A DNA stretch of 57,457 bases from Catajapyx aquilonaris (taxonomy: Eukaryota): NCBI GenBank assembly GCA_000934665.2, contig KZ538638.1, positions 1-57,457 on the forward strand, in the 5' to 3' direction. The first letter of the stretch is position 1; every line of letters starts with the position of its first letter. Below the pieces are notes generated by a model. That model saw nothing but the letters and a program-made list of their open reading frames with translations, did no database searches and had not been told where the DNA came from. The position numbers were made by a program, and so were the translations under genes. Positions 7,302 through 53,082 of the stretch are shown in pieces.

Positions 7302-7312
7302 ATTATTATTAA

Positions 7313-7366
<54 letters not shown>

Positions 7367-15278: not shown

Positions 15279-15389
15279 ATGTGGGAGTGCGCCAGCATGG
15301 GGACGCTCTCACGGACCAGGAGGCTCGTGGGAGGGCCCACCTCCTATTGGTTACTACTACTTTTGGCGTGCTTGACCACACTGTCTCAG
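15279..15389 (+). CDS. Dl: Delta coding exon 1 (signal peptide); start at ATG 15279 or in-frame ATG 15297
   Basis: [37 protein letters not shown] has a hydrophobic core. Donor CAG|gtaagt joins in phase 0 to VTGSGVFEL. Confidence 0.85.
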
Positions 15390-16439
15390 GTAAGTTGACT
15401 TGTATTTTGAATGGTTTTGTTGGTTGTCATATCGATACTTGTGACCATTGTTTGGGTGGCCTCGCAGGGATTTTGGATATTTGGTATTTGGGATGATAAC
15501 AAACTATGATTTGTTTTGTGTAAACAGATACAGCGTATCGGTATCAGTGGGGTATTATAGTGTGTGAAGCACTTGGAACATCTGGGGGTTGTTGTAAACA
15601 CTCTGGCGCAAGTGCGACATGTCAACCAAACATTGTTGACTGTTGATGCTCTTGATGACTGACGAATTGTTGTTTGCCCTCGCAGGTGACCGGCAGCGGA
15701 GTGTTCGAGCTGAGGTTAAAGTCTTTCGTGAACGATCTGGGCAAGGATGCTGAGGGGCATTGTTGCAGCGGTTTCCGCACCTCCAGTGGGAAATGCAGTG
15801 GTGTGTGTCTGACAAAGTTCCGCGTGTGTTTGAAGCACTATCAAACGACCATCGACCCTACCCCGCCGTGCACGTTCGGTGATGTGGTGAGCCCAGTGTT
15901 GGGCAATAATAGTGTGCATATGGATGACGTGGATCTCGAGGGATTCAAGAACCCCATCGAGTTCAAGTTCGACTTCAGCTGGCCGGTAAGTGAAACTTCC
16001 AGACATCATCCTTATTGGGCCCAGTAGTTGGCAAGTGTGACGCAGGATGGGACAGACACAGGATATTCCCTATCGAGAGACGGGGCTGGGAAACACATAT
16101 CGCCCTACATATGAATATGCACCAGGCGTGATTGGGACGGCCCGACTCTAATCGATAAATTGGTTCTGATCTAAGGGTGACACCAAGTCTAGGCCAGTGC
16201 TTTTGAGGGAGGCTAGGAAAAGGGAAGTTGGCAGCGTCACCTGTCCAGCCAGCCAGCCAGCCTGTCCGTCACACCTGGCCCAAAAGGCACCGGAAGCCAG
16301 GATTGCCGGCAGGCACAAGTGACGCCGGCGCCAGTAACCTCCTCACCGCGAATCAGTGTCAATCTGAGATTCATAAACGGGGAGGGCAGTAAGTACGAGC
16401 CTCAGGGGGTGGGAGAGCCAAGGGCAGGAACGAGTCTGG

Positions 16440-16479
<40 letters not shown>

Positions 16480-19400
16480 CAACCGGGGGAGAGGTAAGGG
16501 GGAGAAAGTTGGCCGAGGAGCGATCCGTTCCCACGCTGATCAGGCCAGTCCTTACTGTGCATCAAGGCTTCCCTCGGCCCAAGAGATGTCTATAATAAGC
16601 AACGTTATAGGGGCAGTAACAGTGGGGGGCTACCATTTTTGCGGGGAATGTACGGTAGGGAACCAGTTTCGCAGGTTTTTCCTCAAAATCGGCGGAAGCT
16701 GCGTAACGCGGGGGGGGTTAAAGGAAAAGGAGCTCGTGACCCGGCCTTGTGACCCCGACCTTGGTTGGCACGTGACAGGTCTCTCTGGCTAGAAGTAGGG
16801 CTGTCGATGTCTTCAGGAGCTGGCGGTTCATCCCTGTTTTTTTTCTTGTTTCTTTTAGGGAACCTTCTCATTGATTGTGGAAGCTTGGCACGCAACGAAC
16901 ATGACAGGCTCCGCCTACGGAGGTAAGTTCAACTGTTCTTTCTCAACCTGGGTGAAGGTGGGCAAAACTTTGTGCCAGTTGGTAGCTTTCCATTCTTTTT
17001 TGGCGGGGCTAGGGTGGGGGGAGAGGGTAGGAGGGTGAGAGTTTAAGTTGAGGATGCCCCCAACCAACTGGCTTGCTGTGCAACTTCGTGATGTGCTTTG
17101 CCTCGTTCCTGCTTGATAACCATCAGCCATTTAGGAAGAAACCCAACCTTGGTGGTTGGGGTGGCTGTGAAATATATATATTTTTTATATACCCCACCGC
17201 CACCTTCTTGGGCATGGTTGACAAGTTCAACTCGCACAATGCAAAGAACCTTCATTCCCGCAATTACGAGAAAAACCAGGCGAAAGGACTAATCCCGTTA
17301 CACTCGTAGTTTGACCCCCTCGGGGAAATGCCTTGTAATAGAGGCAGTCGCCATTTTTTGCCAAAGTGTGTGAATCTCCCAGCAAATCTCGAACGTCATC
17401 GCTTGTTTTGTTGTTTGGCATTCTTTCCGTTCCGGGTTGTTTACCACGACCTCTTGTTTTTGTTTGTAACCGGAAAAAACCGAGGCACCCGGAAAAATAC
17501 CGTGTCTGGAAACAAAAATGTGTAACCCGGATTGACCCGAGTGACCGTGAGCATGACTCACAAAACCCTGTTCATTTTTTTTTTACACTTCTTCTTTTAT
17601 ATACCCCCTCGTGCTCACCTTCCCAACCCGCATCAATGTCATGGGAACGTAGGAACCTTGGCTGGCCCCGGAGTTGAACCAAGAGCTGGGCTTCGAAAAA
17701 GCCTTCCAATGCGAGGTCACATTGTTATTAAAAAGGGGGTGGATATTCCGCGCGTGGGAGTGTGGACCGTTCCCCATATGAATTATGTCCTCAAACTGTC
17801 CAAATCTCAGGGATGTATAAATCCGAATGGGTGGGCCACTCGTGTCAAAATACCAAAATGAAATATTGTCCCGAACCGGTTTTGGCAGTAGAGCAGGTTA
17901 ATTTTCTCTAGTGAGGACTCCCGTACCCCACCGATGTCAGCGCCTTCCAGCCGCTCTGACATGCTGGTTGCAGCCCGGCCAGGATAAGAGTCCTCCCCTC
18001 CCTAGCATTCGGGTGACGTAACCCTGTAGCGCATATCCTGCCCGGAACCCGGAACACTGGTTTCCCCCGGGGCGGGGGTATCAAATGTACCCCCTCTCTA
18101 AATTCAGGCTCTGAAAATGGGGAAGTGAGGACAGACGGACAGTCCCTTTTACCATTCCAATGACTGGCTTCCTTCCCGCTTCCCGTTCTGGGGCGTGGGA
18201 ATGGATCTGGTTTTTCCTCCGGGTCCATAAAGCACTAGGGATGCCCCTTCGGCATCTTCTTAAGGACATTATTTTTACCCCCCCCCCCCCCCCCCCCCCC
18301 NCCAACCCATCCGCCCCACCTTTTTTTTAAAGTTAGAAGTGGCCCGTGAGTTTGTTTAGACTCGTAGCTTTCCCCCCAACTGAAGAAGTGGTGTCTTGAA
18401 GAAAATCATTTTTATTAGCCCCAGGGTGCCCCCTTAGAGGGGGTGGAAAAATATGTAGGATATGAGTTGCATGGTGAAGGTGCGAAACCGGACTCGTGGG
18501 ACCATCACTGTCGTGACCGGGAAAGTAGGTACCCGAAGTGGTGACCTCGTCACAAAAGTGGATGGCAGCAGGGAAAAACTGCTGGTGGTTTGGGGGTCGC
18601 TATTTTTTGGGGGGAACCCCACGACGGTTGTTTTTTATATCGGCGGGGTTGGCACAATTGGCAGGGTTGTCGTGTCGGAAGCCAACCCTCCGGACTAACG
18701 GCTCAGATCGCCATTTCAGATTGCGTGTTAGTCACCTGAACAATATAGGTTAGGACCGATCTGGCACCGTGGCTCCAAAGAGGTTCCTCCACTTCTTGGC
18801 CACCCCACCGGCACCAGATGGCCAAAAGAGGGGTAGCTACCAACTGGTACTTGAGCAAGGAACGAAAAAAGGTGGTGGTAGGAGGGATAGGCGGTGACAA
18901 AGTACGACTCGCTGCAATATATACAAACAGGCGAAGTAGACAATGAGCCAGATTGTGACCAAGTATGTGGCATAGGTGTCACACCGGCTGTGTTTACGCC
19001 CGATCGAGGTCGGACAGAATGCTGGCTATAAACGGAAGTGCTGATTCGTTCGCGCCCTTGACGAGAACGATACAAGTGTTATAATATACACTTAGGTTCA
19101 ATCTGTACTGGCGGCGTATTACTTCACGATTGATGGTGTTGACACACATGGGAGCGTCTTCATTTTGACTAATCAGCTCAACTCCTGGGGGAAGGTTTCG
19201 TAACGGCGCGAAACGAGTCAGACTCGTCCGATTGCAAGTAGAAAGGCGAATTTTGGCTGCCAAAAATGTGGAACATATTCGCGCGCTAAATGGCGGTTGG
19301 TAATCCGAGTCTATTGTACCTTGTCGTTTCTTTGTGGATAGTTTTCTGGGGAGAGGAGGGGTGGTAAGAGACTTCGGGGGAGGAGAAGAGAAGCGTGTGA

Positions 19401-22400
19401 ACCATCCCTGGGTTGCACCCCTCCGGTTTGTTTCGTGCTTCTGCTCCCATGACAGGACACCGTTGAGCTTTTGGGAAGGGAGGGTGGGGTGGAAGGACCT
19501 TCTCTTCTGCTTGCTTGCTTGCTTGCCTGCCTTCCTCCTGATGGACCCAGGTGCGTTGCAGAAGGAAGGAAGGAAGCAAGGAGGAAGTGAACCTTTTGAA
19601 ATTCGAGCTAGCGGTTGCTAGGGGTCCCTCCCTGTATTTGCATCCAGGCCCTTTGGGCGCCCATTCATCTGGGCTGCCTTAAACTTACGACGCTGGTCAT
19701 AACGGGGATTGGTCCATTCTTTCCGTCAGCTGCAATTGCGCAAGGTTGTGCATGCGGCAAGTATCTCACGGAAATTGATTTTGGCGAGAAGGAAGTTGGA
19801 GGCGAGAAAGGAGTAATTCGGTCGCAATTACGACTTTTTTAAGAGGAGTCGAAACAACCTGTCCCAATTACTTATGGGCCGTTTGGCCGACACGGTGAAA
19901 GCCGTGGAATGTTTGAATAACCGTCCTAATTATTCCACCCATGACCTATAGAAGCAAAAAGCACCTGTACCTGACGTCACCTATAGCATTTTTTGTGCTT
20001 TGTTATTCGCAGGTGAAGACACCCTGATTAGCCGTTTGGCGACTCAGCGGTGGTTGGACGTGAGTGACAATTGGACTCAAGACGAGCACATGACGTCGGA
20101 CTCGGTGATGCGGTACGAGTACCGGGTACGGTGCGATCCACATTACTACGGGGAGGGTTGTGCGGCCTTGTGCCGACCAAGGGACGACACCTTCGGTCAC
20201 TACACCTGTTCCGAGGCCGGCCAGATGATGTGCCTGCCCGGATGGACCGGCGAATACTGCACCAGAGGTGAGTACACCTTTTTTGGTACTTTGCTACCTA
20301 GTCTCCCCCGTATATGGAGGTTGAATCCCGCTGATTTGGATCGCGGGGGAAAATCTGGAAGATGGGGAAGTGAAACTTACCCATCTCAACATGCAAAGAG
20401 CGCCCTGTGAAAGTTTTTAGAAAGCGAAATTTGTGGGAGCTTCTTCACCCCCGTTGATTTGAGAGCGATGCTTCTATGCCTCCGTTCTAAAAGGCCTCTT
20501 ATGCAACAGGATGATCCTGCTAGCCAAACTCGACTTTCGTAATGAATCCGTCGGCTTTTTTGTGTGTCCGCGCCTTCCATTTGTTAATGACAGTTCCCGC
20601 TCATCTGTAGAACCGGTATGCCCGGAGAAATGTATGTTGGAAGGACAAAATGATAGCAAAAGCGCAGGACCTGTTGATAAGGTCCCATATAGGGATAGCT
20701 CCCCCTCCACCCTACCCTCCCATCAGGTACCGGGCGCCTGAATGAAGTCGTAGTGACGCCATGGTCCCCCGAGTGGCAGATGGTCGAGAGACAATAGGGT
20801 TTGATGTCGGAGCCGCACGCAGCAAGCGTGCCGCCTGCCTTTTCACGCACAAGTGTACGAGCAAAAAGTGTCACTTTTGCCGTATCGACCAGCTTATTAG
20901 TATTCTACAAAACCGTCGTACATATGCAGGAAGGCCCTCAGGTACTCAATTGGCAAAAAACAAAAAAAAACCTAATCTAATCGTCAGGATGATTTTCCTG
21001 GACGTGCCTCAGAGCGGAACAAACGAGGGTGTCTTGAAGCGGAATTCCTCATTCGGATGCTGAGAATGGGCAAAAAGATACGGTTTGAAGAGCTTGGTAG
21101 TCAAGCTTGAGACGCGTGCCTTATATGAGATGGCGGCGGTGCACCATAGGGATGTATCGGAATGGAGGTCCAAGATGCGGAGCACGTGCCGGCCCGACAA
21201 GACGCGTGGCGTCCTTCCGGTTTTTGGGGGTGGTAGGAGCGGGGGGGGGTTACCAAAGGGGGACGCGCTCGCACGTGGCAGCTGTCACTACGAGAGGCCT
21301 TCGGAACAAAAGAGGAAAAGCCGCGCCGGCTGCTGGCGCTTGCCACGAGACCAGCTGCCCCCAAGCCCACCCCTACCACCCTACCCCACCACCCCCCTTC
21401 AAAAGGCAAAACAGCGCAGCTGGACCTTTCCCGCCACACTTTTGCCAAAATTGCCAGGTGAAGCTTGCTCCTTTTTCTTGTACTTGGGGCAGGTAGGACC
21501 CTCCCCTGGTATTGTCCCGGATCTCCCAGGGAAACCTTTTTTTTATTGTACGTATTCAAGATGCCTATGAATGCTGGAAGGTTACTATTGGCCAAGTGTT
21601 AGGTTAGGTCGGCCTGGCGTGGCGTCCCCGAAGCTATGAGAGCAGATGGTGGTAGAGGACAGAGGGGGTTAAAAAGGGGGGCACTTGACCATCGTGGATA
21701 CTGGTGTCGGTCAACCTGTGACCAGCAGACAGCATCCAGGCGAAGAAGTGGACCACAGAACCGCATCTTTTTGGTTCGGAAGCGGCAGAGCGGAACGCTC
21801 CTCCTGTTTCCCACGGGTAGCTCCCTACTCAATTGCTGCTTGCCTGCCAGCCAACCCCAAGAACTGGTCTCGATCATGCTTTTTTACCACCGCCCTGCTG
21901 TTGTTTTTAACCTTTTTTTTTATCTTGCCCTGAAGCCGACGTACCCTTGACATACGCACGAAACGCGCTCCCGGGTTTCAACCTCCATCGGACAGGTACA
22001 ATGCCCCGTACTATTCCCTACATACTGACCCGTCTCTTTTATTTTTATTACAGCCGTGTGTCTGAAGGGGTGCCATGAGCAACATGGGTCGTGCACCGAG
22101 CCCAACGAGTGCAAGTAAGTATTGCCCTTGAGCCCATTCATTGCTCCTTCAGGTGTTCAGTCGGCCGTATGCAAAAATTTGGGCGAAATCAGTGTCGGTA
22201 ATCGGAGAGGCGGGGCCGCCAAACGTCTGGCGCCGGCGCCTATTTTGGGGCCAGTGGGGGTATTTAAAAATAAAAAAAGTGTGTGGTGTCTGGAAATGTG
22301 GGGTTCAATGAGGTTGTTGGTTGTCTGGACGCCTTCCTAATGGACGGCCTTGACAATGAACCTCTGCTGCTGCACCACGTAAAGATGAGCAGGTGGGATG

Positions 22401-25400
22401 GCACTGCGCGGGTTTTAGGTAGTGGCCGGTGGGTGGAGGGGTGTAAGGGGGTGGATTTGTTTCTTTTTTATTATTTAAAGAGACTGGGCGAAGGTCAGTC
22501 AGTCGGCAAAGAAGTTCCTCGCCTCATCTGTGCCGTACTGAAGGTCATCGGGTTGGAAGCGCCGGGAGCTACCTGGGAAGGGTCGTGGGAAAGGAAATTG
22601 ATGCCGGCCCAAGACTTGTTTCCAAACGTCCTTTCGGGGGTGTCTTTTTAAACAGCCCTCCTCTCTTGAGTAAACACTGGTGACATTTGCGACGGAGCGC
22701 CAGGCGCCTTCGTGCGAACCAGGCGGGCAGCTCCGTTACACCTCAAGATATATTGGGCCCGAATGACCCCACAGTCCGTCACAGAATCAGCTATATTGGA
22801 GCCATACCTGTAGACTGGTGGCCGGAAGGAGCTGCCAAGTTGAATGGCAATGAACTGGAGGGGTCACGGGGAATATAACACGGAAAGGGATGGGAAAGGG
22901 AGAGCTGGGCTCCCAAGGCGAAGAATGGAAACGGTGGAACAAAAGGATGACTGTGGTGCGAGGGGGAGGAGGAGGAAGGCGGGCGGGGGTGATGAAAATT
23001 TTTCGAAATGAAGGATAGTAGGAAGAGGGAGAGAGTATGAGGATTGCATGATTGAGCCAAAGAGCGGGGGCGTATAAATGAGCTTAAACAATGGCCAATT
23101 ACACTATTCTGCATACCGCTATTTTTTTCTATGCTAGGGTATACCGAAGGACTGGAGAAAAAAAATTGAGAAAAAAAGTATACCTCCCGCCAGGAAAATG
23201 GGTGCAATTTCCTCCAATTAAAGCATCGGTGGTAGGTAAGCGCCATGTGAATGTGGCGGGTTAGTTTTCTCAAGGTGGCCGCAAATAGCATCCAGGGGAG
23301 CAATTAGGATGCTAGGAGTGGAAGGCGAAGAAGAAGAGAAAAAAAATAGTGGAGGTCTCGATAAACGTGAGGAGACGACCCCCTAAGCGCGATTCGTATC
23401 GCACAAAGCAGCAAGAGCGTGGAGAATGGTTACCTAAAGCTGGTTTCGTGACGGGCTGATGCATTTTTGGTTGTCAAACGTTCATATTCGGTGCCAACGT
23501 GGGAGAGAGGAAGTAGGCCACATTTAGAGTTTCTCACGGCTGTAAGCAAGAACCCATTTTGTGTCACCCTGATCGGTTTAAAACGCACCGCCCGCTGAAA
23601 CCCGAGACCTTGGGGCGCATGGGAGGAGGCCTGGGCGGCACCCTCCTTTTAAGCTATTGTGTGCCTTGTAAATCAGATTCGGCGCCCCTACCAGGCAGCG
23701 CCTTTAATATATTCGGGGCGCCCCCCCACGACTACCGAATTAGGCGAGGTGTTAAATATGGCGCTCTGGTTCTCCCTAGATGCCAACTAGGCTGGAAAGG
23801 ACCATTCTGCGACCAGTGCATGTCGTACCCGGGGTGCCTGCACGGATCCTGCCAGCTTCCTTGGCAGTGCAATTGCGACGAGGGCTGGGGTGGACTCTTC
23901 TGCAACCAGGACCTCAACTATTGCACGAACCACAAGCCTTGTCGCAATGGTGGGACCTGCTTCAACACGGGGCAGGGCTCGTACACGTGCAACTGCCCGG
24001 AGGGGTACTCCGGAACTGACTGCGAGATCAAACTGGATGACTGCGCCCACCAGCCTTGTCTCAATGGAGGCACTTGTAGGGTAGGTGTCGATGTTGTTGC
24101 TGACGACAATGGAAGGGTGAGTGGTGTGCTTGACCGGTTCTTGTCACTTTTCGCTTCAGGACAATGGCACCAGCTATGTCTGCGCCTGCCCGACTGGTTG
24201 GCATGGGCGCCACTGCGAGACGTCGGCCCAGACTTGCGCCGACACACCGTGCAAGAACAAGGGGACATGCATAGATACTGAGGAGGGGTACCTGTGCCAC
24301 TGTCCGCCTGGTTACGCCGGGACCACCTGCGAGGTGCAGATCGACGAATGCTCACCCAGTCCCTGCCTGAACGGTAAGTGTTGCATTGTGTGATGATTGA
24401 GTGAATGGGGTGGATGGACAGGGATGCTGAAAGTCCCCGATCTTGCGTTGTTCACAGGGGGCAGTTGTGTAGACCAACTGAACGGATTCCGATGCCACTG
24501 TCCGACTGGCTTCACTGGGGACCGGTGCGAGACCAACATCGACGATTGCCGCGATAACCCTTGCCTGAACGGAGGGAGCTGCCAGGACCAAGTGAATGGG
24601 TTCAAGTGCCAGTGCGTCCCCGGTATGGTGGGCTCCCTGTGCCAGGACAAGGTGAATTACTGCCTAGCGAAGCCCTGCGCCAATGGCGGCGAGTGCCGGG
24701 AGATGCTGAACGACTTCCGGTGCGCCTGCCGGCCCGGATTCGGCGGAAAGGACTGCAGCAGTGAGACGGACGAATGCGCCAGTGCACCCTGCCTGAACGG
24801 CGGGACCTGCGTCGATCGCGTCAACGAGTTCGTATGCCAATGCAAAGATGGCTTCGGTGGGGCACGGTGCGAGGGGGACGCGACCACACAAACTAATGTG
24901 TCGCGAAGGGTGTCCGACCTGGAAGCCGGCATGGTCGGCTCAGTTGTTGAAGGCGACGACGACGACGGCCTGTCGGCGCAACACGTGGTGCTGATCGCCA
25001 CGGTCTCCACGGCCATCCCGCTCCTGGTTCTGGTGGCGGCTGCGGCGGTGGTGTACATGAAATACAAGCGCAAACGCGAGCGACGCCGCGCCGACGACGA
25101 GGCGCGCAAGCAGAACGAGCAAAACTCCATGCAGGGCATGAGCAAGAAGTGCCTGGACGAGCACATGATAGTGAACCCGCTCGACTACCCGAAGGCAAAG
25201 TGCGTGAACACCAGCAGCAATGGACTGGTTCCGACTCACGATGAGCCGGACTGCTGCAACTACTCCAAAGACAACTCCAGCTACCACACCCTCCAAAGAA
25301 CTAAGTCAAGTAAGCAGCTCAACATTGACTCGGTGGCCCGACGGGCATCCGCGTTGAGCGACAAACTCGACAAAGACTACGATAACCTGTGCGCGAACAG

Positions 25401-25884
25401 CAGGACTCCTTCCTCGGTGGACCGCAGAGTGTCCACTTTAACCTTAGACTCGCACGTGTCCTCATTGTGCAACAATAGGTAAATATCCTCCTCCCAAAGT
25501 GCTTATCTGTAGTGCCAGTGAACACAGACACCTACACAGTGGTTTTTTGCATGCTGCACCTGTGCCACACATGACGGCCACACTTCTTCTTGGCCCGGAG
25601 TCGACCATCTCAGGCGGGATGGTATGATCATTGCTTCATTTTTCACCTTTCGATAGACCCTTCTTATATGCCTGCCGATAGATGGGCCAAGAAAGAGTGC
25701 TGGGCCAGTACTTTGCTTGATGATCTGAAACAAGTGTCTGACCCATGCCCTTCCTTTTGTTGTCCCTTGCAGCGAAGGCACGTTAGTCAAACGGCCTGCA
25801 GATGAATTGAGTTGCGGCCAACAGAGCAGTGTATATGTGATAGGGGAGCACTACCCGGAAGGCCTCTTCGCTACGGAAGTGTAA
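15279..25884 (+). CDS. Dl: Delta, Notch ligand (whole spliced CDS: 15279-15389, 15686-15985, 16859-16922, 20013-20267, 22054-22114, 23780-24080, 24160-24373, 24458-25478, 25773-25884; 2439 nt, 812 aa)
   Basis: All 8 introns are GT..AG with compatible phases (0,0,1,1,2,0,1,2) and give one open frame. Domain order is signal peptide, MNNL ([32 protein letters not shown]), DSL, 9 EGF, TM, then an intracellular tail ending ATEV. There is no Serrate/Jagged-type cysteine-rich domain. Confidence 0.96.
15686..15985 (+). CDS. Dl: Delta coding exon 2 (MNNL/C2 domain)
   Basis: cgcag|GTGACC acceptor; [17 protein letters not shown]...[13 protein letters not shown]...FDFSWP; CCG|gtaagt donor. Confidence 0.97.
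16438..16481. repeat. (GGCA)11 tetranucleotide microsatellite in Delta intron
   Basis: Directly visible perfect array. A short (CCAG)n array lies at about 16245-16262. Confidence 0.95.
16859..16922 (+). CDS. Dl: Delta coding exon 3 (64 nt, not in the ORF track)
   Basis: Long polypyrimidine tract plus tttag| acceptor. Encodes the conserved [11 protein letters not shown] followed by [10 protein letters not shown]. Donor G|gtaagt. Confidence 0.95.
20013..20267 (+). CDS. Dl: Delta coding exon 4 (end of C2 domain and DSL domain)
   Basis: [13 protein letters not shown]...[30 protein letters not shown]...[10 protein letters not shown]; cgcag| acceptor and G|gtgagt donor. Confidence 0.97.
22054..22114 (+). 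CDS. Dl: Delta coding exon 5 (first part of EGF1, 61 nt)
   Basis: ttacag| acceptor; (A)[19 protein letters not shown](K); AA|gtaagt donor; phases fit both neighbouring exons. Confidence 0.95.
23780..24080 (+). CDS. Dl: Delta coding exon 6 (end of EGF1 to start of EGF4)
   Basis: ccctag| acceptor; [24 protein letters not shown]...[19 protein letters not shown]...[11 protein letters not shown]|gtaggt donor. Confidence 0.97.
24160..24373 (+). CDS. Dl: Delta coding exon 7 (EGF4 to EGF6)
   Basis: cttcag| acceptor; [19 protein letters not shown]...[12 protein letters not shown]|gtaagt donor. Confidence 0.96.
24458..25478 (+). CDS. Dl: Delta coding exon 8 (EGF6-9, transmembrane segment about 24985-25059, most of intracellular domain)
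   Basis: tcacag| acceptor; EGF repeats; [27 protein letters not shown] followed by basic [28 protein letters not shown]|gtaaat donor. Confidence 0.96.
25773..25884 (+). CDS. Dl: Delta terminal coding exon ending in SVYVI...ATEV (PDZ-binding motif); not in the ORF track
   Basis: Pyrimidine tract plus ttgcag| acceptor in phase 2; (S)[36 protein letters not shown]. Resembles the SVYVI...ATEV end of vertebrate DLL1. Confidence 0.93.
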
Positions 25885-27670
25885 GCACAGAAAAAAAGAA
25901 CTCCCACAACAAGAGCCCTATGGACTCGCGTGACGTTGGAAAACACAATCCACCAAAAAAGGACAATTTAACATGAATAACTTATTTATTACACTTCCCC
26001 CATCGCAATCATCCTTAATCCTGATCCCAAAAACTTTTTTGTCGCCTGCCCTTTTCCACATCTTTATCATGAAACCTGCGATTTTTTGAGACTGGAACGG
26101 ACTGCGATGATTGGTGATTGAGGTGAAGACTTTCTTTACATATCTTTTGTTATTGTTTTTTTGAAAGTGCCTTCAGTGCCGTCGCGGTGACACTTTTTTT
26201 TTGCATTCGTGCGATGATTGCAGGGTTTCATTCCCTCTCTAACCTTTACCTTATATATAATTGCCTTTACCTGAACGTAAAAAATTATATATCCTCCACA
26301 CCCCCTTGTGTTCACTCAGTGGCGAAAGGAACCTTCGCCAGGTACCCTGTTTATCAATCATGTTCTATCAAGAATTTTTTTAATGAGTGAATAATTATGA
26401 GAAAAAAAAATGTGAGAAGAGTGGTGATCATGACTGCAAGTGAAAAAAGAAAAATCATGTGGACAAGGAGGAAACGTGGTGGACAGTGGAAATTTTTTAT
26501 GGCCACCTCCCGATTTTTTCACCAATCGATATACCTTTTCTTTCGAACAATTATTTTTGTACCCCCGTCTATATCTCTCCTCTCCTCCTCCTACCCCCCA
26601 CTACTTATATCCTACCCACAACCTTCCCTCTCCATTGTTGCCATTTATTCAACGACTTTAAAACAATAATGTTAGTGAATTGTTCTGAAGGCAAAGTCAG
26701 CCTCCCAAAGTAGTAGTGTAATCAGGAGTAATGAGAGAAAGATAATGTAAGAAAAAAATGAAAAATTTACACAAAAAAGTATTACAAGGTAAACTTAGTA
26801 AGTGATCTTAATTGTTGACGTGATCTCTTTTTTGTTGTCTTGGCAACAAGGACCTTTGTTTCCACGGGTCGTGATGAGCTGGACTATCATTATTATCGCT
26901 ATTATTGTTTCGACGAATTGTCAATGAGCATTCACTATTATTGCGCTATTATTGTGATTGACCTTTTTTTCTTTTTTTGTTCTTTAGGTGTGGTCGTGTT
27001 GATGGTTAGGTTTTTTTTGGTATTTCGTTATTATTATTTTTGACTGTTTAACTTGGTGACCAGGGTCCTTGTTGAAGCGGCAACAGCATTTTCTGCTCTA
27101 ATTTTTTGTGTTGTTGTCTTAGGCCGTTGCTTTGAATTGTTCAGCTCGTAAGTGACAGAGGTGTTCAAAAATGTATAGGGAAACACGAATCAATGGAGAA
27201 AAAAAGATAATGTAAGGTAGAGCCATTTTTTCGTGGAACACCTCTAACTGTCACAGTGAGTACGTAGCATTGGGATGGGATGGGGTTGAGTAAAATAGTA
27301 TTGAGGCTGACGGACCTTGCCGGACAGCAGTTAATAAAATATTCAACTGTGAGCTCCAAACACTTTTTTTTTTCTTTGAACAAAGACAGAGGTTCCTGTT
27401 AACCGAGCTAAGTCATTTTTTGCCCTTGGGGAGGGAAGTTTTTTGGTCCCCAAACAACCAATTTTTTTCGTGTGCCTTTTTTGTTACGTGGTACATGTAC
27501 TTACAATTGTGTTTTTTGAATGTGTTAAAGTATGAGTACTTTATGTAAAACTTTTGTACAGTGATGTATATTTATAGTGAAACGCCTGATGTGCTGTAAA
27601 TACTGGTAATTGAAATTGTCAATAAGAATGTTTCAATGTCAACTTTGAATAAAAGTCATGATCTATTTTT
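25885..27670 (+). other. Delta 3' UTR with polyadenylation signals
   Basis: U-rich sequence after the stop codon; AATAAA at 27333-27338 and 27648-27653, the latter preceded by several TGTA motifs. The exact 3' end is inferred. Confidence 0.6.
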
Positions 27671-36600: not shown

Positions 36601-38612
36601 TTTCTTGGCCTCAGCTTTGTCCATAGGCCTTCTCTGCTGGCTCTTTCGTTCCCACGCTAGGAAGCCAGGTGGCGCCCTCAACCCCGTTGCCAAGTCACTC
36701 ACCATCTTTTTGCCCGCCTTACAATCTCGGACCATGTCTTTTGTTTCCGGAATCGGATGGAGGACAACGCGTTTGCTTCATTTTTACACACTTTTGCATA
36801 TGGCAAAATGGTTTTTTTTTCCGTGCTGAATTGGGGATAAAAATATAAAAAAAAAGCGGTTGTTATAATTTCCGCGATGGATGTACGTGGGATTTCTGAC
36901 TCCCGACCTTGGAGCATCATTGGATCTAAGTATAATCTATGATATTATTTATATGCATATTTAAAAAAATAAACAGGCGGACAGCGTTTAATTTACGTGA
37001 AATCGGATGGGAACTTGCTTGTTTTCGTAAACATAAGAGTTAGAAAATGTTTTTCTCTCCCACTCTGGAATGGTCCAAGGTTTCCCATGCAGGGGTCGAA
37101 AAATCGGCTACCTACCCGAAAAACCTACCCACCTCCCCTCTAATTACCGGCGCGGCACCTTGAAAAATCCCTCTTTTCTGTCGGGGGGGAAAATCCGGCA
37201 ACGCGGCCACCAGGTTATTTCAACGGAACGGGCCTTCAAAACCCCACTCCCCACCAACCCACCTACCTTAAAAAGTCCTCATAAAAACGGAACCCCTCAA
37301 AGTTGCTCCCCAATCCCACCCACCTCCCCACCCCAACCCTCTCCTTCTTAATATTCACCTCTGCTGCCGATCCAAAGCCAATTAAATCCTGGGAAGAAAC
37401 AACATGGACACGTCAAAGTACAGCATTGGAAACATTGCACTCTTTAAATGTGCATAAGGTGGTTCCATTTTTGCATTTTTATCGGCCCGATTCATCTAGT
37501 AGGAATCAATATGCCTATTGCGATATATCCCCAGATAGACTCTCTAGAGATCGAATTAATACTCAAGTTGATTATATAATCAGGGTTGACAATCAGGTAA
37601 TGACGCAAACCATGGAATGTTAGGAGGGTAAAAAAAGATATGTAAAAATTAGCCAAAGGTGGACATCTCAGTCCCGTTTTTTTTTCGCAACATTTGTGGA
37701 CACAAAAAAAGGCCTAAATGCGACCTTCCAAACAGTTTTTGCGATGTCGCAGTTCAAAAACCTCATGGAAGGTGAACAAGAAGTTGCAATTATGCCTTAC
37801 TCCTGAAGGCTCACACCACTGATTTTCCGGAGATTAATGGGTGGAAGAACAGTTATGAAAATCACACACGCATCATGTTCCTTTCAGAAGTTGTCCGTTG
37901 TGGAAAATAAGCTGGAACATATGACACTTTACTAAACACCGTTCAGTTCTCCCTATACAAAACTTTGGCTTATTTTCATCTCGTTTTATGTACATCCGAT
38001 AAACTTCGAGTCAACATTGACACAGTTTTAGCGTCTCTTTCCACTTGAAGAAAAGCGAAAAACGTTTAGGCAAACATGCAGGTGCGCGGCTATACATATC
38101 AAAGCACATAATTGCATTACCTTCTCTCGCGATAGCTTGTGATTGGACATTCAACACCCTAGTGTTGGAGGATAGCATTAAGCAACCTCTTCTTAAGATC
38201 TTCTTTCACCTGACATCCCTCCTCCAAAGCGCAATAAATAACCCTCCCTTTTACAGAGGAGCTTAAGCAGTGAAGAAACCAACTGTGAAATTATAATAAG
38301 GATTGTGATGATAAAGGAGACTGAAAAAAAAGTGGCTTCTTCAAAAATAGGTCTAATTATACACGACTTATGGTTGTCAGTAAGTGGCAACCCTTTCTCT
38401 TTTCACATGCAAACAGCGTTGTACGCATCTTTTTTACATGGGAAGTTGGGCTCCTGCGGTTACTTACTGCAAACGGGTGATGTTACAGGAAGCCAAAAGG
38501 CATCTGTGATGACACCAGGGGGCGTTACTGAACCCTGAACCTATAATAATTATCACCGGTTTTTCTTGGGGATTCCACCCTTGGGCTCCCTCCATTCCCC
38601 CCCCCCCCCCCC

Positions 38613-38638
38613 NNNNNNNNNNNNNNNNNNNNNNNNNN
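38613..38638. other. Assembly gap (26 N) between a poly-C and a poly-G run
   Basis: N run flanked by homopolymers; the true length is unknown. Confidence 0.97.
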
Positions 38639-40449
38639 GGGGGGGGGGGGGGGGCTCCTTTTTTTCTATTTTCATAGTAAGGCCTACAGTGGCGGCTCCT
38701 AAAAGAGCGGTTATCATCGGTGGGGGTAGAACAGCCCACAAAAAGGTTCATAGCCTGTGTTTGTGTGTGGCTTGTGTCAGATCCCAACAAGTGGTGTCAC
38801 GTGAGCTTCTGGGCTCCAACTTTGAGATTCTTCCAGGAAAATCGTGCTCATGATGGAAAGATAGGAAGAAGGCACTCCATCTTATTTTTGGAGGGCTAAC
38901 AAAGACCGGGCGTAATGGCCCGGCCCTTTATATGGCATCAACCGATATGGAGACTGCAACGCTGGTATCAGCCACTAATTGACACTGTTACTCAATGCTT
39001 TCTAAACAACATTAGGGACATGTGATATCATTTTATTGAGATCCATTGAACCTTTACTAATGAGCTTTTGTTGAAAATTTGTAACGGTTGATTCAGCCAA
39101 ATGCTTTTAATATGTTAAATCTATGTGAGAAATAACTTAATACGCGTTCCAGCTAACAGGTGCCAACACAACTACTAATGCACCGCCATTAACCGCTTAT
39201 CCTCAACAAGGCCCATTAATTTTGATACCCCTAAATTTATGTACCGGCCTTATTTTTGCATCTACTCCCTTTTGGTAAGCCTCCCCAGGGGAAAAAAAAA
39301 ACTAAGAAGCGATATACCACCCACTTGGCCGTCAAAACATTCCCGAGGCGGCAAATGAGACTTGAAAAGGGTTACGGGCCACTTGTGCCTACACGCCCAT
39401 ATGATAGCCCCGTCTAAATACGGTCCACAAATGGTTCGAACGTGATAGTGCGCAGACTCAAAAGGCGGGTATTTCCGTGTAGGTGTTATCAAACCATTTT
39501 TTTTCTCTATCGCTCTCTTTTAAACGAGGGGAATGAGACCGGTCTAGAAAAAAAATATTTACATCCCAGACGATATTTTGAAGAGCAGAAACCGTTAGGT
39601 GGCTACCCTGCTGAGGATCCTTGCCCAAGAAACCAACCGATTCCCAAAGGACCATAAAATAAATCGGGAGGGGTTTCCTGTTCACAATGCACGCAATATT
39701 AAAAACAAGTGCTTTTGTGTTCCAGCCTTTTACAATGGGTGAAGCATTTGTGGCGGGTAAGCACATACACACACACAAAAAATAAACATAAGTGGGCTGT
39801 TGTTGAGTGCACTTATGTGTGCGTGAGGTCGACCACAAACTGCCGCCACTTTTCAGGAGATGGAGAAATGTACCGGAGACACACAGGTCCATTATTAATT
39901 GGAAACTGGGCAATTCATTGCTTGGAAGATAACGGTCCTTACAACTTATTCGTTTGCTAGGGGCAGGTAGCTCATCGCCTCTTCAGTCGGGGTATTAGTC
40001 ATGTTAAATGCTGGTTTTTTCGGTAGCACTCTAATGTGTGGGAGTAATTACTGTTGTTTGCGTAGTTTATGTGAATGCTTTCAAGTGTTTTAGAGAGTTA
40101 CAGATTTTTAAAAGCGTCTGGCCTAATAATTTAGACTAAATAACAAGCATGTGCTGCATATGTTCAATTTGAACAAAACGCAGCTTTGTGCACATAAGTA
40201 CGTACTTAAGTTGCGGATATAAAATGTGATACGAACTGTCCTTGTTAGTGAAAGGTTTCAGGATCTAAGCGCATTGATATAATGATTGGAGGATGTTGTG
40301 CCAGATAATACCAGCAGATGTAAAAGTGAAAGCCAGTTTACCCCCCCCCCCCNCCCCTGTATAGCTAGTTTCTGGGATATCCCCCGGCTGGACAATTACA
40401 AATTTAAAGCTTGTAATTGAGCCGTAACATGCTCAAAATGCTACATAAC

Positions 40450-44348: not shown

Positions 44349-44404
44349 TGTCTCCCCACACTATTGACTGTATCTCCGGGGGTACAAATAAAATAAATAA
44401 ATAA
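44349..44404 (+). mobile_element. 56-bp 5'-truncated retroposon 3' end with (AAAT)n tail
   Basis: Insert ends AAATAAAATAAATAAATAA and is flanked by a 15-bp direct repeat with one mismatch, ATATCAYGATGCCTC (44334-44348 and 44405-44419). Confidence 0.65.
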
Positions 44405-44472
44405 ATATCACGATGCCTCACCTCGTCATGAATGAAGATACAGTGTAATTATTATATGGTCACTGACAATCT

Positions 44473-44543
44473 CCATTCTATCTATGAATGATCCTGGAAT
44501 AGAACGTAGGACCTGTGGAAGGCAGATCCTTCTAAACCACTAG
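44473..44543 (-). mobile_element. Degenerate tRNA-derived SINE head
   Basis: Minus strand reads TAGTGGTTTAG (A-box-like) ... AGGTCCTACGTTCTATTCCAGGATC (B-box-like) ... AGAATGG, colinear with the head of the SINE at 42866. Confidence 0.4.
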
Positions 44544-47500: not shown

Positions 47501-48062
47501 TAAACGTGTGATTATCAAGTGGACCCGTGAACCTCATATTTTGTAATCAATATAAGTTAATACTAGTGTACTACTGCGATATCTGTTGTACTTGTAGTGG
47601 CTGTCTGGATAATCCCATATGTGGGGGATTTCCGTTCGGGAATCCCAGGGTCACACTTCACATTGCCGTGTAAATCGCCGAAAAGGCTGAGGTGTATTGT
47701 AATCTACGACCTATGACGTCTGTTAATTGTATACGTCGATCTTATCACTACTTGAAATCTGGAAATATTACCAATGATGCAGTTATATACAGCCAGTAAA
47801 ATGTAGATCAAATTTGCAAAACGACCAAGCATATTTTTATGAAAATTGAGTTAGCCATTGTGTAATATTGCCCTTAATATAGGAAAGGAAATTTCGTAAG
47901 AGATCAAGCAATCTTCAAATTTCCATACCTCACAATCATTCTGATTATGATCTTCCCTCATTACAGATCTTCATATTAAGTTGTGCAATAAGTTCGACGA
48001 AGTTAAAATTGTTGTCCTCTAAACTTATTTCAGACCAACTGGCATGATTAACATACATAATG

Positions 48063-48430
48063 ACAATTATCGATAATTGTTGTACTGCTATAAGCAGTTA
48101 CCACCTTCGATATATTTTTAATTAATCGTAGATTTTCCCTAATTTCCATATTTTTCCAACAATCCTATCCATAAACAAACCCTCTCCCCCTCCCCCCCAA
48201 AAAACCGTCCCGCCAATAATCCATCGACCAATCAGAACAATAACCGTATCATTGAGAATCAATGCTATACCGCTGCTCGTGGCCTGGTTGGCTTTCTTCC
48301 CAAAGCGAACCCGTCATTTTGGCAGTGGTTTAATCTCCCCGGAGTGTTACATCATCCTCAGCGGGCAGCAGCGGGATTGGAGCCGGCTTCTAAGGCGTCA
48401 CGGGTAACGTCACACTTGACGACTCGTCCA
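48063..48430 (+). promoter_or_regulatory. Putative ChaC promoter region
   Basis: DRE TATCGATA (48068-48075) inside an 18-bp palindrome ACAATTATCGATAATTGT; CCAAT boxes near 48213 and 48228; CEBP-ATF composite GTTACATCA (48346-48354); CRE half sites at about 48395-48421; shift from AT-rich to GC-rich sequence before the ATG. Confidence 0.5.
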
Positions 48431-48515
48431 GCCTCAAGTGTATGTGGGGTCTACCCTCAGGCGTCTTTCATTGCTGATTTTCTGTGCATTTGGGACCGGC
48501 CTGTCAGGGAATGGT

Positions 48516-48689
48516 ATGACCATGGATGGACAGCACTCCGTTGATACCAACAGCCTGTGGGTGTTTGGGTATGGATCGTTGTGCTGGTACCCTGGGTTCA
48601 AGTTTAGAAGGAGCAGTGTGGGATACATCAGAGGGTTTTCCCGCCGTTTTTGGCAGGGGAACACCACGCATCGGGGTACTCCAGATAAG
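48516..48689 (+). CDS. CHAC1: ChaC exon 1
   Basis: [28 protein letters not shown]...[16 protein letters not shown]; the second ATG (48522) has strong accATGg context; AAG|gtgatt donor. Confidence 0.92.
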
Positions 48690-51600
48690 GTGATTATGCC
48701 TGTTTTTGTTGACATTTAGTTGATGGACTTGATGTGTCATTTGGGTCAGGCGTGTCTATGAGATTAAGGGGTTTGGATGTTTATCTCTAGAAATAGGTTG
48801 AGCGACTCATAGCCACATTGTTGGGTACCATAGTCAGTCGTATAATTTGCAACCAGTTTGTCAACATATTAGCCAATATGTCATTTTAAAGTCCGCAATA
48901 TTGCATGCCCCATAAAAAATGGACTGATGACACTTGTTGATATGTTTGTTTACGACCCTATCGAATTTCCGGACTCGCATTTCTTAATGCCTTCTTGCAC
49001 GTGACGAAAACGTGCTCACACTAAAGTATGCTGCCTTGAACCTGAACTTGGCTGATAGCACATCCAGCATGAAGGCCACTAAAAATAAAGCCCAAAAGTA
49101 AATCCAGTTGTAGACCGATAAGAAAATCTAATTCCGGTTTTCTCTATTCCAGCCAGGACGAGTGGCTACCCTTGTGGAGGATCAGGAGGTAGGTGTCAGC
49201 CACCTCCCTTTTGCTTTCTCCCATTTAATTTGATCAGGCTTGCGTAATCAGACCCTGGACCATCCTTGAGGTTTGCAAACTTCCATGAATGAAGGTCTAC
49301 GCTCCTGAGGGCACAGCCCCCACCATTGATTGCATAATAACGACTCTCGCTCTCAATTCGGGGTCCCCCCCCCCCCCCCCCCNCCCCCCCCCCTTATATT
49401 ACTCCGTCGAAAGCGTCTGGTTCCCTTTCAGGGACGAGGTGATTTCAAACGACCCGAACGGTGCGAGTAATTGGAATGAGAACTGACGTCTTTGGCCATT
49501 CTCAAGCCACCGGAGAAAATGAAACTGGGACCACACGACCGTGACCTCAATCGAACATTGGCATAGCGCGAATCCTGCTTTTGCATATGAGGGGGGGTTA
49601 TACATTGCGGAAGGGCCGGATCATTTTTAGTTGGAATTATTGTCAGTAATATAATTTTCAACATTAACCTCCTGAGACCCCTGGTACAGTATACTGTACC
49701 TTTGTTTTTTCCAGCACCTTCTAACTCAAACGCGTAAAAAAACAAAAACAAAGGTACAGTATACTGTACCAGGGGTCTCAGGAGGTTAAAAATATTTTAC
49801 CGTAAATGTATATTTTTTGGTGTGAATTTGTACACGTGTTAGAACGCTGAGAGGGAATTACTATCCGACAAGCCTTTATTGTTGACACGGCTTGGTATGC
49901 AGTAAATCGGATGCTTGTATTGTACAAGTAGCACATTGTTGTGAGCAGTCAACACTTACGTACCGGTATGTGTTGCATTATTCTCACGTCCCGCAAGGAA
50001 ATGGCGAGTTTCACGTGAACAGTGCGGGTATTTGGGCCTGCCAAAGTGCAGGTTGTATTCTACTAACACTACAGCGGAGGGTTAATTTTAGAGCTGGGGT
50101 ATCTCGAGCAAAAAATTCCGTAACCGTGCCCGACGCAGTACGATACGTTAAGAAACGGGCAAGTGTCACAGCTCGTCCCCATTCTTGCTCAGTAACAATT
50201 GCTCACGGTCAGATGTGAAGGATAAAGCTCGGTCTGAAAAAGCGCGCCAAATATGACGCCCATCAGCATGCAGTGTTTTCGTTAGTTTGCTATTGCAAAT
50301 ATCCCAAATATTTACATTTCTCATGCGCGGACGTCATAATCCCAGATGCTTCAATATGAGAAACCAGGAAAAAACTCTGTTGTGTGTTAGTAAATACCAC
50401 ACAGTTTCCTGGAAGAAGAGCGTTACATACGTAAAGGCTCAAGTTTCAAAACAAATTCAAATGCAGCATTGATGTAAATATTATTTCTCAACTGGACACG
50501 CAGCAACTACTAGAAGGCTGTAAATAATGCAGGAAGGTATTTGCGTGAATGTTAATATATGGGTTCCAGGGTACTTTCACGTGCAAATATTTTCCCACTG
50601 CTAGCATATTCTGCGCAATCCTGATTAAGTTTGAAAGATGTTATCACTATTTGAGTACCCATGCCCCGCCCTGGTTGCATAAGAACCAGGAATGGAAATG
50701 TAATATTTCGAGGAACCTGTTCCTCTCAGCAAGACAGAAGTGGTAGAGAAGGAAGTGGGAATGTTTCTTCTTTTGGATGATCATAATTATAGTACGCACC
50801 TTCCTACGAGCAAGAGGCTTTTCACTCGATCCCAAAAGATGAGGATTCGTTGGTTCGTGAAATTACAGTTTCTCCACCAATAATTTGAAACCCAGTGGCA
50901 GAGAGAGTCGTAGGGATGCTTCCTTGGGAGCCCCCTCAGGCGATGAAACAGAAATCATTCCACGGGTCAGGTTTAACCACGGCTTTCAAAATAAATCGGG
51001 AAGCGTGAGTCCAAAGTGGTGATTCCACCAAATGAAACTCTGGTTTTTCTCCTCCAAAAAAAGGGATTTGGTTGGACCCCCCCTCTCCTTCTGGGTCGAT
51101 CTTCGAGTCAATTTAATCATTCGGAGGACGATCAATGTTGTCCGTACCTTTGACTCATCGATCAAACATGGGCAGTGCAGTGTATAACAGGGTAAAGGAT
51201 CGGGACCCCTACACTTTTGTATGCTCCATACATACCCAATATCCGCTTATCAGTCAACATGCATATCAATCATAAATGTGACATCAAGTCTGTAGGGAAC
51301 GTTCATTCACAACTCAATTTTCTGCCTAGCCATAATGCAGAAAAATGACGTGACCTGGACTCCGGTTGAGGGCGGTGTAGGCAACAGTACCATTGTTGGT
51401 CTAGTGCAATAATTGGTGGTCTTTGAGGCTGATGAAACCCTTCCTGAGCAGGTCCGGTCTGGGCAGGAGCAGCGAATAAGAGCCTGGGCAGCAAGGGAGG
51501 GCCCCCGTGTTGTTGGAACAAAGCGGAAGGTGTTTGACCTCGGGGACGGTGTGAAAGGGCCTCGGGCATAAGGCAGATGACCATCTCCTTCTGTCAGATG

Positions 51601-53082
51601 AGGAGGTGGGAAAGTGTCAGCTAAACCAGAGCGCCTTGGAATTCTTAATCGGAGCCGGGAAGTTTGCGGTTTCCTTTTAGGGGGGAAAAAACAGTTTGAA
51701 GAAGTTGGGGGTGGAAGGGAGTTACCTTTTGGGCCACCCACCTCAATTGACCACTTCATGTCAGCGTGCCTCTTTATTGTGTGGGTTTTATCTGGCAAGG
51801 TCAGTTATGGGCCCCGTTTTATGCAAGAGCTCCTTTGCATTTTCTATCATTCAAAAAGATCGATGATCTTGGTCTGGCTCTACGTGGTACTTTTTCTTTA
51901 CAAGTGACGTGCCGCCTGCAATCGATATTTAATTTCCGGGAATTTTTAAAGACATGGAAATGAGCGGGGCATATATTTTGACAGGTAGGATGATTGCCCT
52001 TCCGCGACGATGACGAAACTTGCGTAACACATGATTGTCACATTGTCAACCTGCAATCATCTTTGTTCCTTCTCAGAATGAGGGACAATGGAGCCGGTAC
52101 AGATTAAGATTGTGATTTGGGGGATTAGGAAGTCACGCGTAACTCTCTGTCCGGATATGCAAATTTCGGCACTTGGCGCCGCACAAATGAGATTCCTGCC
52201 CGAAGGGATACGGCGGATAAGTTAGAGAAGCTGCTGCTGAAAGGCCGATAATGGCTATTTCCCCAGCAGGGAGGCGGAAGTTTCCACTGCCTACGTCGCT
52301 CCTAAATCAGCGAAAGCCGACGATATATGCAAATGCAATGGCAGTGCCCGCGGACGCTCCTCCACCCGCACCCCATTTGCCTCCCTTATTGCCTAATAAA
52401 ACACCAATAACGGCTTTATCCCTATAGCCATGTTGTGTCCTGCCCGCCATATTGAGTCCTCCACATAACAACGTGGCCATCTTGTTACTAAGACATGATG
52501 TTCCAATAGGAAGTATGTGCGCATGTAACAAAAATAACGTTGTTATTTCAGGCTGTGACATGGGGCAAAGCATACGAGATCGGTGGCGAAGACGCTCTGA
52601 AGTACCTGGAACATCGCGAAGGCACCCTGGGAGGCTACAAGACCTTGATTGTCGACTTCAATTCCAAAGAGCATAACAATGCAATTCAATCATTCCCTGT
52701 GCTGTTGTACATGGCAACACCAGACAACCGACATTGGTTGGGACCAGCATCGCTGCAGGAGCTGGCCACGCAGATTAGTCAGTGCCAGGGACCATCGGGG
52801 GACAATGCGGATTACGTGGTCCGATTGGCCCAGTTCATGAGGGAATCGGTACCGGAGGTGGCGGATGATCACCTCTTCACTCTGGAGGCCTTGGTTCGCA
52901 GCAGGATTAAGGACATGGAGTCTTCGGGGGATCTGAAGTCGAGACGGGGTCTCCAGGAACAAGTGGATGCTGGGGCTCCTGGTGGTCATCATCAGCAAAT
53001 GCAGCCACAAGAACCAAGACGTGACTCCTTTGAGTTTACGTCGCGTGTACCGTCCAAGAAGCTGCGTTGCCTTAATGTTTAA
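48516..53082 (+). CDS. CHAC1: ChaC-family glutathione-specific gamma-glutamylcyclotransferase, CHAC1/Botch-like (exons 48516-48689, 49153-49188, 52552-53082; 741 nt, 246 aa; alternative start 48522)
   Basis: Family motifs [45 protein letters not shown] (catalytic Glu position), [16 protein letters not shown]. Two phase-0 GT..AG introns give one frame. CHAC1 rather than CHAC2 is judged from motif resemblance and gene neighbourhood, not from a tree. Confidence 0.93.
49153..49188 (+). CDS. CHAC1: ChaC exon 2 (36-nt micro-exon, not in the ORF track)
   Basis: ttccag| acceptor; [12 protein letters not shown] is the conserved ChaC PGRVxTL motif; GAG|gtaggt donor. Confidence 0.93.
49668..49785. mobile_element. 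118-bp TTAA-flanked MITE (piggyBac-like) in ChaC intron 2
   Basis: Perfect 42-bp TIRs (49668-49709 and 49744-49785) starting CCTC; TTAA on both sides (49664-49667, 49786-49789). Confidence 0.88.
52552..53082 (+). CDS. CHAC1: ChaC exon 3
   Basis: tttcag| acceptor; AVTWGKAYE...YLEHRE...[14 protein letters not shown]...KKLRCLNV*. Confidence 0.95.
   Translation, partial: AVTWGKAYEIGGEDALKYLEHREGTLGGYKTLIVDFNSKEHNNAIQSFPVLLYMATPDNRHWLGPASLQELATQISQCQGPSGDNADYVVRLAQFMRESVPEVADDHLFTLEALVRSRIKDMESSGDLKSRRGLQEQVDAGAPGGHHQQMQPQEPRRDSFEFTSRVPSKKLRCLNV

Follow-up and report, generated by a model that had tools for sequence, protein, structure and literature searches.

The window analysed here is a stretch of 57,457 bases from Catajapyx aquilonaris (GenBank assembly GCA_000934665.2, contig KZ538638.1, positions 1 to 57,457 of the forward strand). 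It carries an intact gene for the Notch ligand Delta (15279-25482, + strand), followed in tandem on the same strand by an intact gene of the ChaC family (48516-53082, + strand). Comparison with other genomes established that this Delta-ChaC linkage is ancient, going back to the early bilaterians, and that it is already present in a public catalogue of syntenic blocks. We favour, with a probability of roughly 0.55, the explanation that the pair is an inherited piece of an ancestral bilaterian neighbourhood, held together by the regulatory landscape of Delta, with ChaC as a bystander. The juxtaposition of a Notch ligand with a relative of a reported Notch antagonist is therefore a genuinely ancient linkage, yet one that forms part of a wider neighbourhood.

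The catalogue is the Syntenic Density Database (Robert et al. 2022, PMC8851819, supplementary file 2), in which block 3020, labelled 'Bilateria novel', groups the orthogroups Delta/DLL4 (OG0000017), ChaC (OG0001729), INO80 (OG0000996), SRSF5/6/B52, FEZ/unc-76, TIMM50 and a group annotated 'PPAR signalling'. Blocks in that study contain no fewer than three orthologues, separated by up to five other genes, and, according to the accessible part of the paper, shuffled-genome controls gave far fewer blocks than were observed. Block 3020 has at least 54 rows from at least 10 species; all species counts given here come from the rows listed and are lower bounds. Counted in this way, Delta was present in at least four species, ChaC in at least seven, both together in at least three (Tribolium, Strigamia and Latimeria), and ChaC together with INO80 in at least six. 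Dl (TC004114) and ChaC (TC004115) are consecutive in Tribolium, with an INO80-type gene at TC004111; Dl, ChaC, an INO80-type gene, B52 and FEZ lie on one scaffold in Strigamia; and DLL4, CHAC1 and INO80 share a scaffold in the coelacanth Latimeria (PMC8851819). The Strigamia gene numbers (3069/3070 for genes annotated as PPAR coactivators, 3071 for Dl, 3075 for the INO80-type gene and 3076 for B52) give the same order as DLL4, CHAC1, INO80.

The available portions of two further sources extended the comparison to mammals. One lists DLL4, CHAC1 and INO80 together in human 15q15 (PMC5325341), which bears out their expected position as neighbours there; the other regards Chac1 and Ino80 as the closest genes to Dll4 on mouse chromosome 2 (PMC3874025). 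The original prediction, namely that the linkage has been kept since the bilaterian ancestor, was thus confirmed by block 3020 and by the mammalian DLL4-CHAC1-INO80 locus, and the adjacency is shared with other invertebrates, since both Tribolium and Strigamia carry Delta with ChaC in the block; it is not new, having already been catalogued. The main text of PMC8851819 makes no mention of Delta, ChaC, INO80 or Notch, leaving the block uninterpreted there, and we found no paper that, judged by its title, discusses the Delta-ChaC linkage. The locus is another instance of a known conserved block, and the small leads that it offers are the undiscussed block itself and a C-terminal box of arthropod ChaC proteins described below. 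Catalogued and, in the literature found, not discussed, block 3020 would be a ready test case of whether a Delta landscape reaches ChaC and INO80.

The window resembles the DLL4-CHAC1-INO80 locus of vertebrates (15q15 in human, chromosome 2 in mouse) in that a ChaC-family gene comes next after a gene for a Delta-type ligand, in what we take to be the same orientation relative to each other as human DLL4 and CHAC1, and differs from it in that INO80 does not lie within the window. Likewise, it resembles block 3020 (PMC8851819) in that the Delta/DLL4 and ChaC orthogroups adjoin, as do TC004114 and TC004115, and departs from the definition of a block (at least three orthogroups with at most five intervening genes) in that two block members, Delta and ChaC, were seen. 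Neither the 15 kb before Delta nor the 4.4 kb after ChaC yielded a third block 3020 orthogroup (INO80, SRSF, FEZ, TIMM50 or the PPAR-coactivator-annotated group). In particular, the 4.4 kb from the 3' end of ChaC to the window end gave no Pfam match, and hence no INO80.

Drosophila melanogaster shows how such a neighbourhood can be partly dismantled. Dl maps to 3R:19,302,731-19,326,217, at 92A1-2 (PMC5371283), Ino80 insertions map to 19.37-19.40 Mb, at 92A3 (PMC9659042), and the ChaC gene CG10365 lies in 95A5-95B1 (PMC4321029); Dl was kept beside Ino80, and ChaC moved away. CG10365 (P0115) belongs to the same arthropod ChaC clade as the window protein and has the same C-terminal tail. The window is thus like Drosophila 92A (Dl, Ino80) in having Delta beside a member of the same ancestral block, and unlike it in that ChaC is here the first gene after Delta, having departed to 95A5-95B1 in the fly.

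Within the window, the stop codon of Delta and the ATG of ChaC are separated by 23,033 bases, a distance of the order of size originally given (about 22.6 kb), although not that exact figure. This intergenic stretch (25483-48515) contains no recognisable gene by Pfam scans of open reading frames (ORFs), an Rfam search and a search for transfer RNAs (tRNAs). The window has 186 ORFs of at least 80 residues, 160 of which were included in the general Pfam scan and gave one match only, an EGF exon of Delta; the other 26 comprised six that were scanned separately, 13 that overlap Delta exons in a different frame, and seven containing N. Pfam matched none of 168 intergenic ORFs of 45-79 residues, in scans that short-exon or non-coding genes could escape, none of 143 upstream ORFs of 47-79 residues, and none of 37 small ORFs downstream of ChaC. 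Rfam at gathering scores gave no match in the window and ARAGORN found no tRNA. Delta is accordingly flanked by at least 15 kb upstream and 23 kb downstream without a recognisable gene. Gene models and scans together upheld the tandem arrangement on one strand with no recognisable gene in between, and the predicted outer coordinates, 15279 and 53082, coincide exactly with the start codon of Delta and the stop codon of ChaC.

The ancestral neighbourhood would have run roughly TIMM50, a FAM120-like gene, Delta, ChaC, INO80, an SR splicing factor and FEZ, and a piece of it would survive in vertebrates as DLL4-CHAC1-INO80. In the human genome, CHAC1 and INO80 adjoin DLL4, and FAM120B presumably adjoins DLL1 and TIMM50 DLL3; on this background, the ancestral neighbours of Delta seem to have been shared out among DLL1, DLL3 and DLL4 after the vertebrate genome duplications. 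The 'PPAR signalling' orthogroup, OG0002173, adjoins Delta in both Lingula and Strigamia and may correspond to FAM120. The likeliest cause of the conservation would be that Delta, as a developmental gene, has a wide cis-regulatory landscape spread over its gene-free flanks and towards INO80, with ChaC, and perhaps INO80 too, as bystanders inside it. Lineages in which selection acts against breaks would then retain ChaC, and those in which it was able to transpose out would lose it from the neighbourhood, as Drosophila did, and the position of a bystander would therefore say nothing about a role of ChaC in Notch signalling.

The large flanks without a recognisable gene on either side of Delta (15 kb upstream and 23 kb downstream) support the explanation by a Delta landscape. 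Irimia et al. (2012) described, in the part of the text available, ancient linkages as arising often from co-transcription, or from regulatory blocks in which enhancers of developmental genes lie in bystander genes (PMC3514665). Like the genomic regulatory blocks of that account, the window has a gene for developmental signalling, set in wide gene-free flanks, beside a gene of a functionally unrelated, housekeeping type, an arrangement kept across phyla. The main text of PMC3514665, as distinct from its supplementary tables, which may list the pair, names neither Delta nor ChaC. Several points weigh against a landscape centred on Delta. For this genome, the regulatory-block step is conjecture. 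The rows listed for Lottia, scallop, oyster and urchin group ChaC with INO80 and/or SRSF and FEZ and do not include Delta, an arrangement that a Delta-centred constraint leaves unexplained. The Tribolium gene numbers (INO80-type 4111, Dl 4114, ChaC 4115) suggest a different order; an unbridged gap lies between the two genes in this assembly; and INO80, with no Pfam match in the 4.4 kb 3' of ChaC, is missing from the window.

A serious rival, possible although clearly less probable in our judgement, is that the pair is a neutral remnant, the ancestral order having merely remained unbroken in this lineage with no selective constraint on the two genes. The patchiness of the block is consistent with such a history, Delta and ChaC occurring together in three of ten species among the rows listed, as is the relocation of ChaC in Drosophila without obvious cost. 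Moreover, ecdysozoans lost 50% of the blocks of the bilaterian ancestor, according to the accessible part of PMC8851819, and survival of a given block in some lineages is to be expected. Set against this, the Delta-ChaC-INO80 trio survives in centipede, beetle, coelacanth and mammals over more than half a billion years, shuffled genomes fell far below the observed number of blocks in the same available text, and the gene-free flanks around Delta in the window are unusually large.

The identity of the second gene bears on what such a linkage could mean, and the window ChaC can be called CHAC1-type by position only, as the sequence tree favours neither CHAC1 nor CHAC2. The protein is at most 49-56% identical to any protein found, and its alignments with human CHAC1 (52.7% over 167 residues) and with a CHAC2-type protein (52.3% over 176 residues) have equal scores. 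It differs from vertebrate ChaC proteins both in this equal similarity to the two types and in its C-terminal KKLRCLNV tail, which is absent from them.

The ChaC tree had 54 rows (the window protein, 46 other animal proteins and seven bacterial ChaC), the animal rows being N-terminally complete representatives, a few further homologue hits and human CHAC1. Near-duplicates (P0252, P0176), long branches (P0262, P0242, P0218) and close kin of kept rows (P0115, P0195, P0243) were left out, as were two of the nine bacterial outgroup loci (L001, L012), which yielded no ChaC reading frame by simple extraction. A word search with the ChaC profile listed 120 rows, nearly all from Diptera, and so offered no anchor among vertebrates or spiralians; a source organism was given for 18 of the 30 proteins looked up, and the tree is one without any mollusc or echinoderm protein known to adjoin INO80. 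In the careful tree, the window protein fell in a clade of 28 rows (support 83/83), outside both vertebrate clades. The 12 members of this clade that carry a name come without exception from arthropods (ostracod, insects, mite, crab and barnacle). Vertebrate CHAC1 formed a clade of its own (87/82), and a CHAC2 clade without the window protein joined the vertebrate-type P0208, P0188 of Styela and the springtail protein P0166 (98/85); the backbone splits were poorly supported. Because the springtail protein sits in the CHAC2 clade, the tree shows that arthropods can carry a separate, putative CHAC2-type gene. A quick tree rooted on the seven bacterial ChaC placed the CHAC2 clade outside all others (Shimodaira-Hasegawa-like approximate likelihood ratio 93), a position that the careful search did not hold. 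Approximately unbiased (AU) tests rejected neither a single clade of the arthropod proteins and CHAC2 (p = 0.366) nor one of the arthropod proteins and vertebrate CHAC1 (p = 0.367). The assignment to CHAC1 rather than CHAC2, on which the original prediction had leaned, finds neither support nor contradiction in the tree: the window protein stands outside the CHAC2 clade and outside the vertebrate CHAC1 clade, with the AU tests rejecting neither affinity.

Gene neighbourhoods separated the two types more clearly. In urchin, scallop and oyster alike, one ChaC belongs to block 3020, with INO80 as its neighbour in the first two species and B52 and FEZ in the third, and a second copy, annotated CHAC2, belongs to a separate conserved block (1523), with ARMT1/C6orf211, NAT6, ZDHHC22 and ABCB10 as partners. 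Because all three species have copies in two separate blocks, the ChaC duplication looks older than the diversification of the Bilateria. Since sequence trees cannot decide between CHAC1 and CHAC2, block 3020 provides a useful positional criterion for calling invertebrate ChaC genes CHAC1-type. Rows of block 1523 with the prefix CAPTE_ are labelled 'Capsaspora owczarzaki'; prefix and scaffold names suggest Capitella teleta, and the label may be wrong.

Some bacterial ChaC proteins were close to those of animals. Among loci L001-L016, those of Myxococcota, 'Deltaproteobacteria', Opitutales and some gammaproteobacterial metagenome-assembled genomes (MAGs) had 38-51% identity to an animal CHAC2-type protein, and those of Rhodobacterales and other Alphaproteobacteria only 29-38% to the same protein; the ChaC of Rhodanobacter and of a Myxococcales MAG formed short branches adjoining animal proteins in the trees. 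Gene transfer, slow evolution and contamination are possible reasons for animal-like bacterial ChaC.

The ChaC gene model comprises three exons on the + strand and 246 residues, with AG/GT internal borders and no internal stop; its Pfam domain was matched in two + strand ORFs, at 48.4 and 52.5 kb. Exon 1 (48516-48689) carries the ATG and the YGSL substrate-binding motif (Pfam PF04752 positions 1-45, E = 5.7e-18); exon 2 (49153-49188), 36 bases encoding 12 residues, was located by motif search and its AG/GT borders; and exon 3 (52552-53082) carries the rest of the catalytic domain (PF04752 positions 55-175, E = 5.1e-30), a C-terminal extension ending in KKLRCLNV, and the stop. The domain is full length, covering positions 1-45 and 55-175 of 176, with exon 2 supplying the PGRV segment. 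The active-site residues of CHAC1 are YGSL, D68, R72, E115 and Y143 in CHAC1 numbering (PMC12756093, available part), and seven of these eight are kept in the window protein, in which YGSL, R72, E115 and Y143 are identical and D68 is replaced by N. The window ChaC is a predicted gamma-glutamylcyclotransferase with the residues needed for glutathione cleavage, a reaction that in this family yields 5-oxoproline and Cys-Gly. The column of D68 holds S in six of seven bacterial proteins and in all three members of the CHAC2 clade, N in 23 of the 28 rows of the arthropod clade and in nine of 12 other invertebrate proteins, and D in four of four vertebrate CHAC1, a distribution that hints at a possible CHAC1-side affinity of the arthropod clade.

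The C-terminal extension of arthropod ChaC proteins ends in a conserved basic box, KKLRCLN[IV], with the cysteine exactly fourth from the end; it reads KKLRCLNV in the window (53020-53079) and mostly KKLRCLNI elsewhere. Cysteine at this position was found in 125 of the 126 word-search hits (P0001-P0126) and in 42 of the 150 representatives (P0127-P0276), and none of the named proteins compared from vertebrates (CHAC1), tunicates, brachiopods and snails, or of CHAC2 type, shared this feature. The letters of the box are reminiscent of a polybasic CaaX prenylation signal in which the second aliphatic position is, unusually, an asparagine, or else of a class II PDZ ligand. A literature search turned up no paper whose title points to a CaaX-like C-terminal box in ChaC.

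A direct functional explanation of the pair would be that Delta and ChaC/Botch are co-regulated, so that a sender cell makes the ligand and damps its own Notch maturation. Its starting point is the description of mammalian CHAC1 as Botch, an inhibitor of the S1 processing of Notch1, in the accessible part of PMC12756093; the available text of PMC4169000 states that the fly and mouse counterparts of Botch inhibit Notch processing, and reports that knock-down of Wnt3 in the cnidarian Clytia raises the Notch ligand together with two Botch-related transcripts. The co-up-regulation in Clytia is suggestive, but has no bearing on linkage. The two genes do stand in tandem on one strand; however, they are 23 kb apart, with no shared-promoter arrangement, and sequence does not place the window ChaC in the vertebrate CHAC1 clade. 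CHAC proteins are moreover described as cytosolic and glutathione-specific in the same portion of PMC12756093. Among the seven species listed with ChaC in block 3020, six have it with INO80 and three with Delta, and Drosophila keeps Dl beside Ino80 rather than beside ChaC. These last two observations tell against the co-regulated ligand-plus-inhibitor pair originally proposed, which we consider unlikely, and the pattern across species fits a wider Delta-ChaC-INO80 neighbourhood better than a functional module of two genes.

A more elaborate form of this idea, which we hold to be very unlikely, would make the pair an ancient co-regulated unit in which shared enhancers switch on ChaC in Delta-expressing cells and the KKLRCLN[IV] box tethers ChaC to membranes, leaving the sender deaf to Notch. 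The membrane-tethered arthropod ChaC would locally alter glutathione or Notch maturation, and Drosophila would represent a lineage in which the link was re-wired in trans. Co-regulation of the pair, if true, would add an extra cell-autonomous layer to lateral inhibition; nothing that we found favours it.

Least credible of all is an artefact of assembly, in which a wrong scaffold join brought Delta and ChaC together at a gap of 26 N (38613-38638), as a random misjoin is very unlikely to have produced the same neighbour as in Tribolium, Strigamia and vertebrates. The 26 N have a C homopolymer on one side and a G homopolymer on the other. Four public runs from one sample, possibly the source of the assembly itself, contained all sampled words of the region; in all four, contigs end at 38611/38612 and begin again at 38639, their loose ends carrying additional C and G, and none bridges 38613-38638. 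Contigs break in the same way near a single N at 40353, however, and word depth is similar on both sides of the gap in each run. Seven of the eight N sites of the window lie inside C/G homopolymers (18301, 31913, 38613-38638, 40353, 42824, 44825 and 49383), the eighth being at 56302. Because contigs also break at 40353 and seven of eight N sites lie in C/G runs, the contig breaks reflect homopolymers rather than conflicting data, and they speak neither for nor against the join. The C run and the G run flanking the 26-N gap would form a perfect palindrome.

The Delta gene model comprises eight exons on the + strand and 776 residues, with AG/GT at all internal borders, no internal stop and the stop codon at 25480-25482. 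Its ORFs between 15.6 and 25.5 kb match the Pfam families MNNL, DSL, EGF_DL_JAG and EGF, and three short exons (16859-16922, 22054-22114 and 24160-24373) are missed by large ORFs. Exon 1 (15279-15389), read from the sequence with its ATG at 15279 and a GT donor at 15390, encodes a hydrophobic N-terminus taken as the signal peptide. Exon 2 (15686-15985) carries the N-terminal C2-like MNNL domain (PF07657, E = 1.1e-35), and exon 3 (16859-16922), found by motif search and AG/GT borders, adds an MNNL segment that includes an 11-residue stretch and fills profile positions of about 101-120. Exon 4 (20013-20267) encodes the end of MNNL and the DSL domain (PF01414, E = 3.7e-20). The first half of EGF1 comes from exon 5 (22054-22114), which was located by cysteine pattern and AG/GT borders and restores the frame between exons 4 and 6. 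Exon 6 (23780-24080) holds EGF_DL_JAG (PF21700, E = 5.9e-18) and EGF repeats, exon 7 (24160-24373; ORF 24121-24390) further EGF repeats (E = 5.9e-13), and exon 8 (24458-25482) EGF repeats (E = 3.3e-26), the transmembrane segment, the intracellular tail and the stop. In the translation of exon 8, a hydrophobic segment is followed by a ten-residue stretch; signal peptide, single transmembrane segment and cytoplasmic tail were read by eye from the translations. A regular expression counted eight EGF-type motifs in the 776 residues.

Against Pfam, the Delta ORFs gave only MNNL, DSL and EGF-type families, with no extra domains of Jagged/Serrate type. The last exon, used as a homologue query, was uninformative on ligand type, its results being swamped by multi-EGF proteins (SNED1, Notch and crumbs among them), and the MNNL exon was therefore compared with solved structures instead. 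It matched the chains of Drosophila Delta (7alk, E = 4.2e-36), DLL1 (5.6e-23), Jagged-1 (3.3e-15) and Serrate (7.4e-08), and since Drosophila Delta was the best match among the solved structures, the predicted ligand is of Delta type and arthropod-like.

The G+C content of the window ranges from 37 to 56% and peaks over the Delta gene. The Delta gene body (16000-26000) stands at 0.51-0.56 against 0.38-0.45 just downstream, a sharp step at the 3' end of the gene. Upstream of Delta, at about 7300-7430, lies a long trinucleotide repeat that translates as runs of I on the + strand and as runs of N and D on the - strand.

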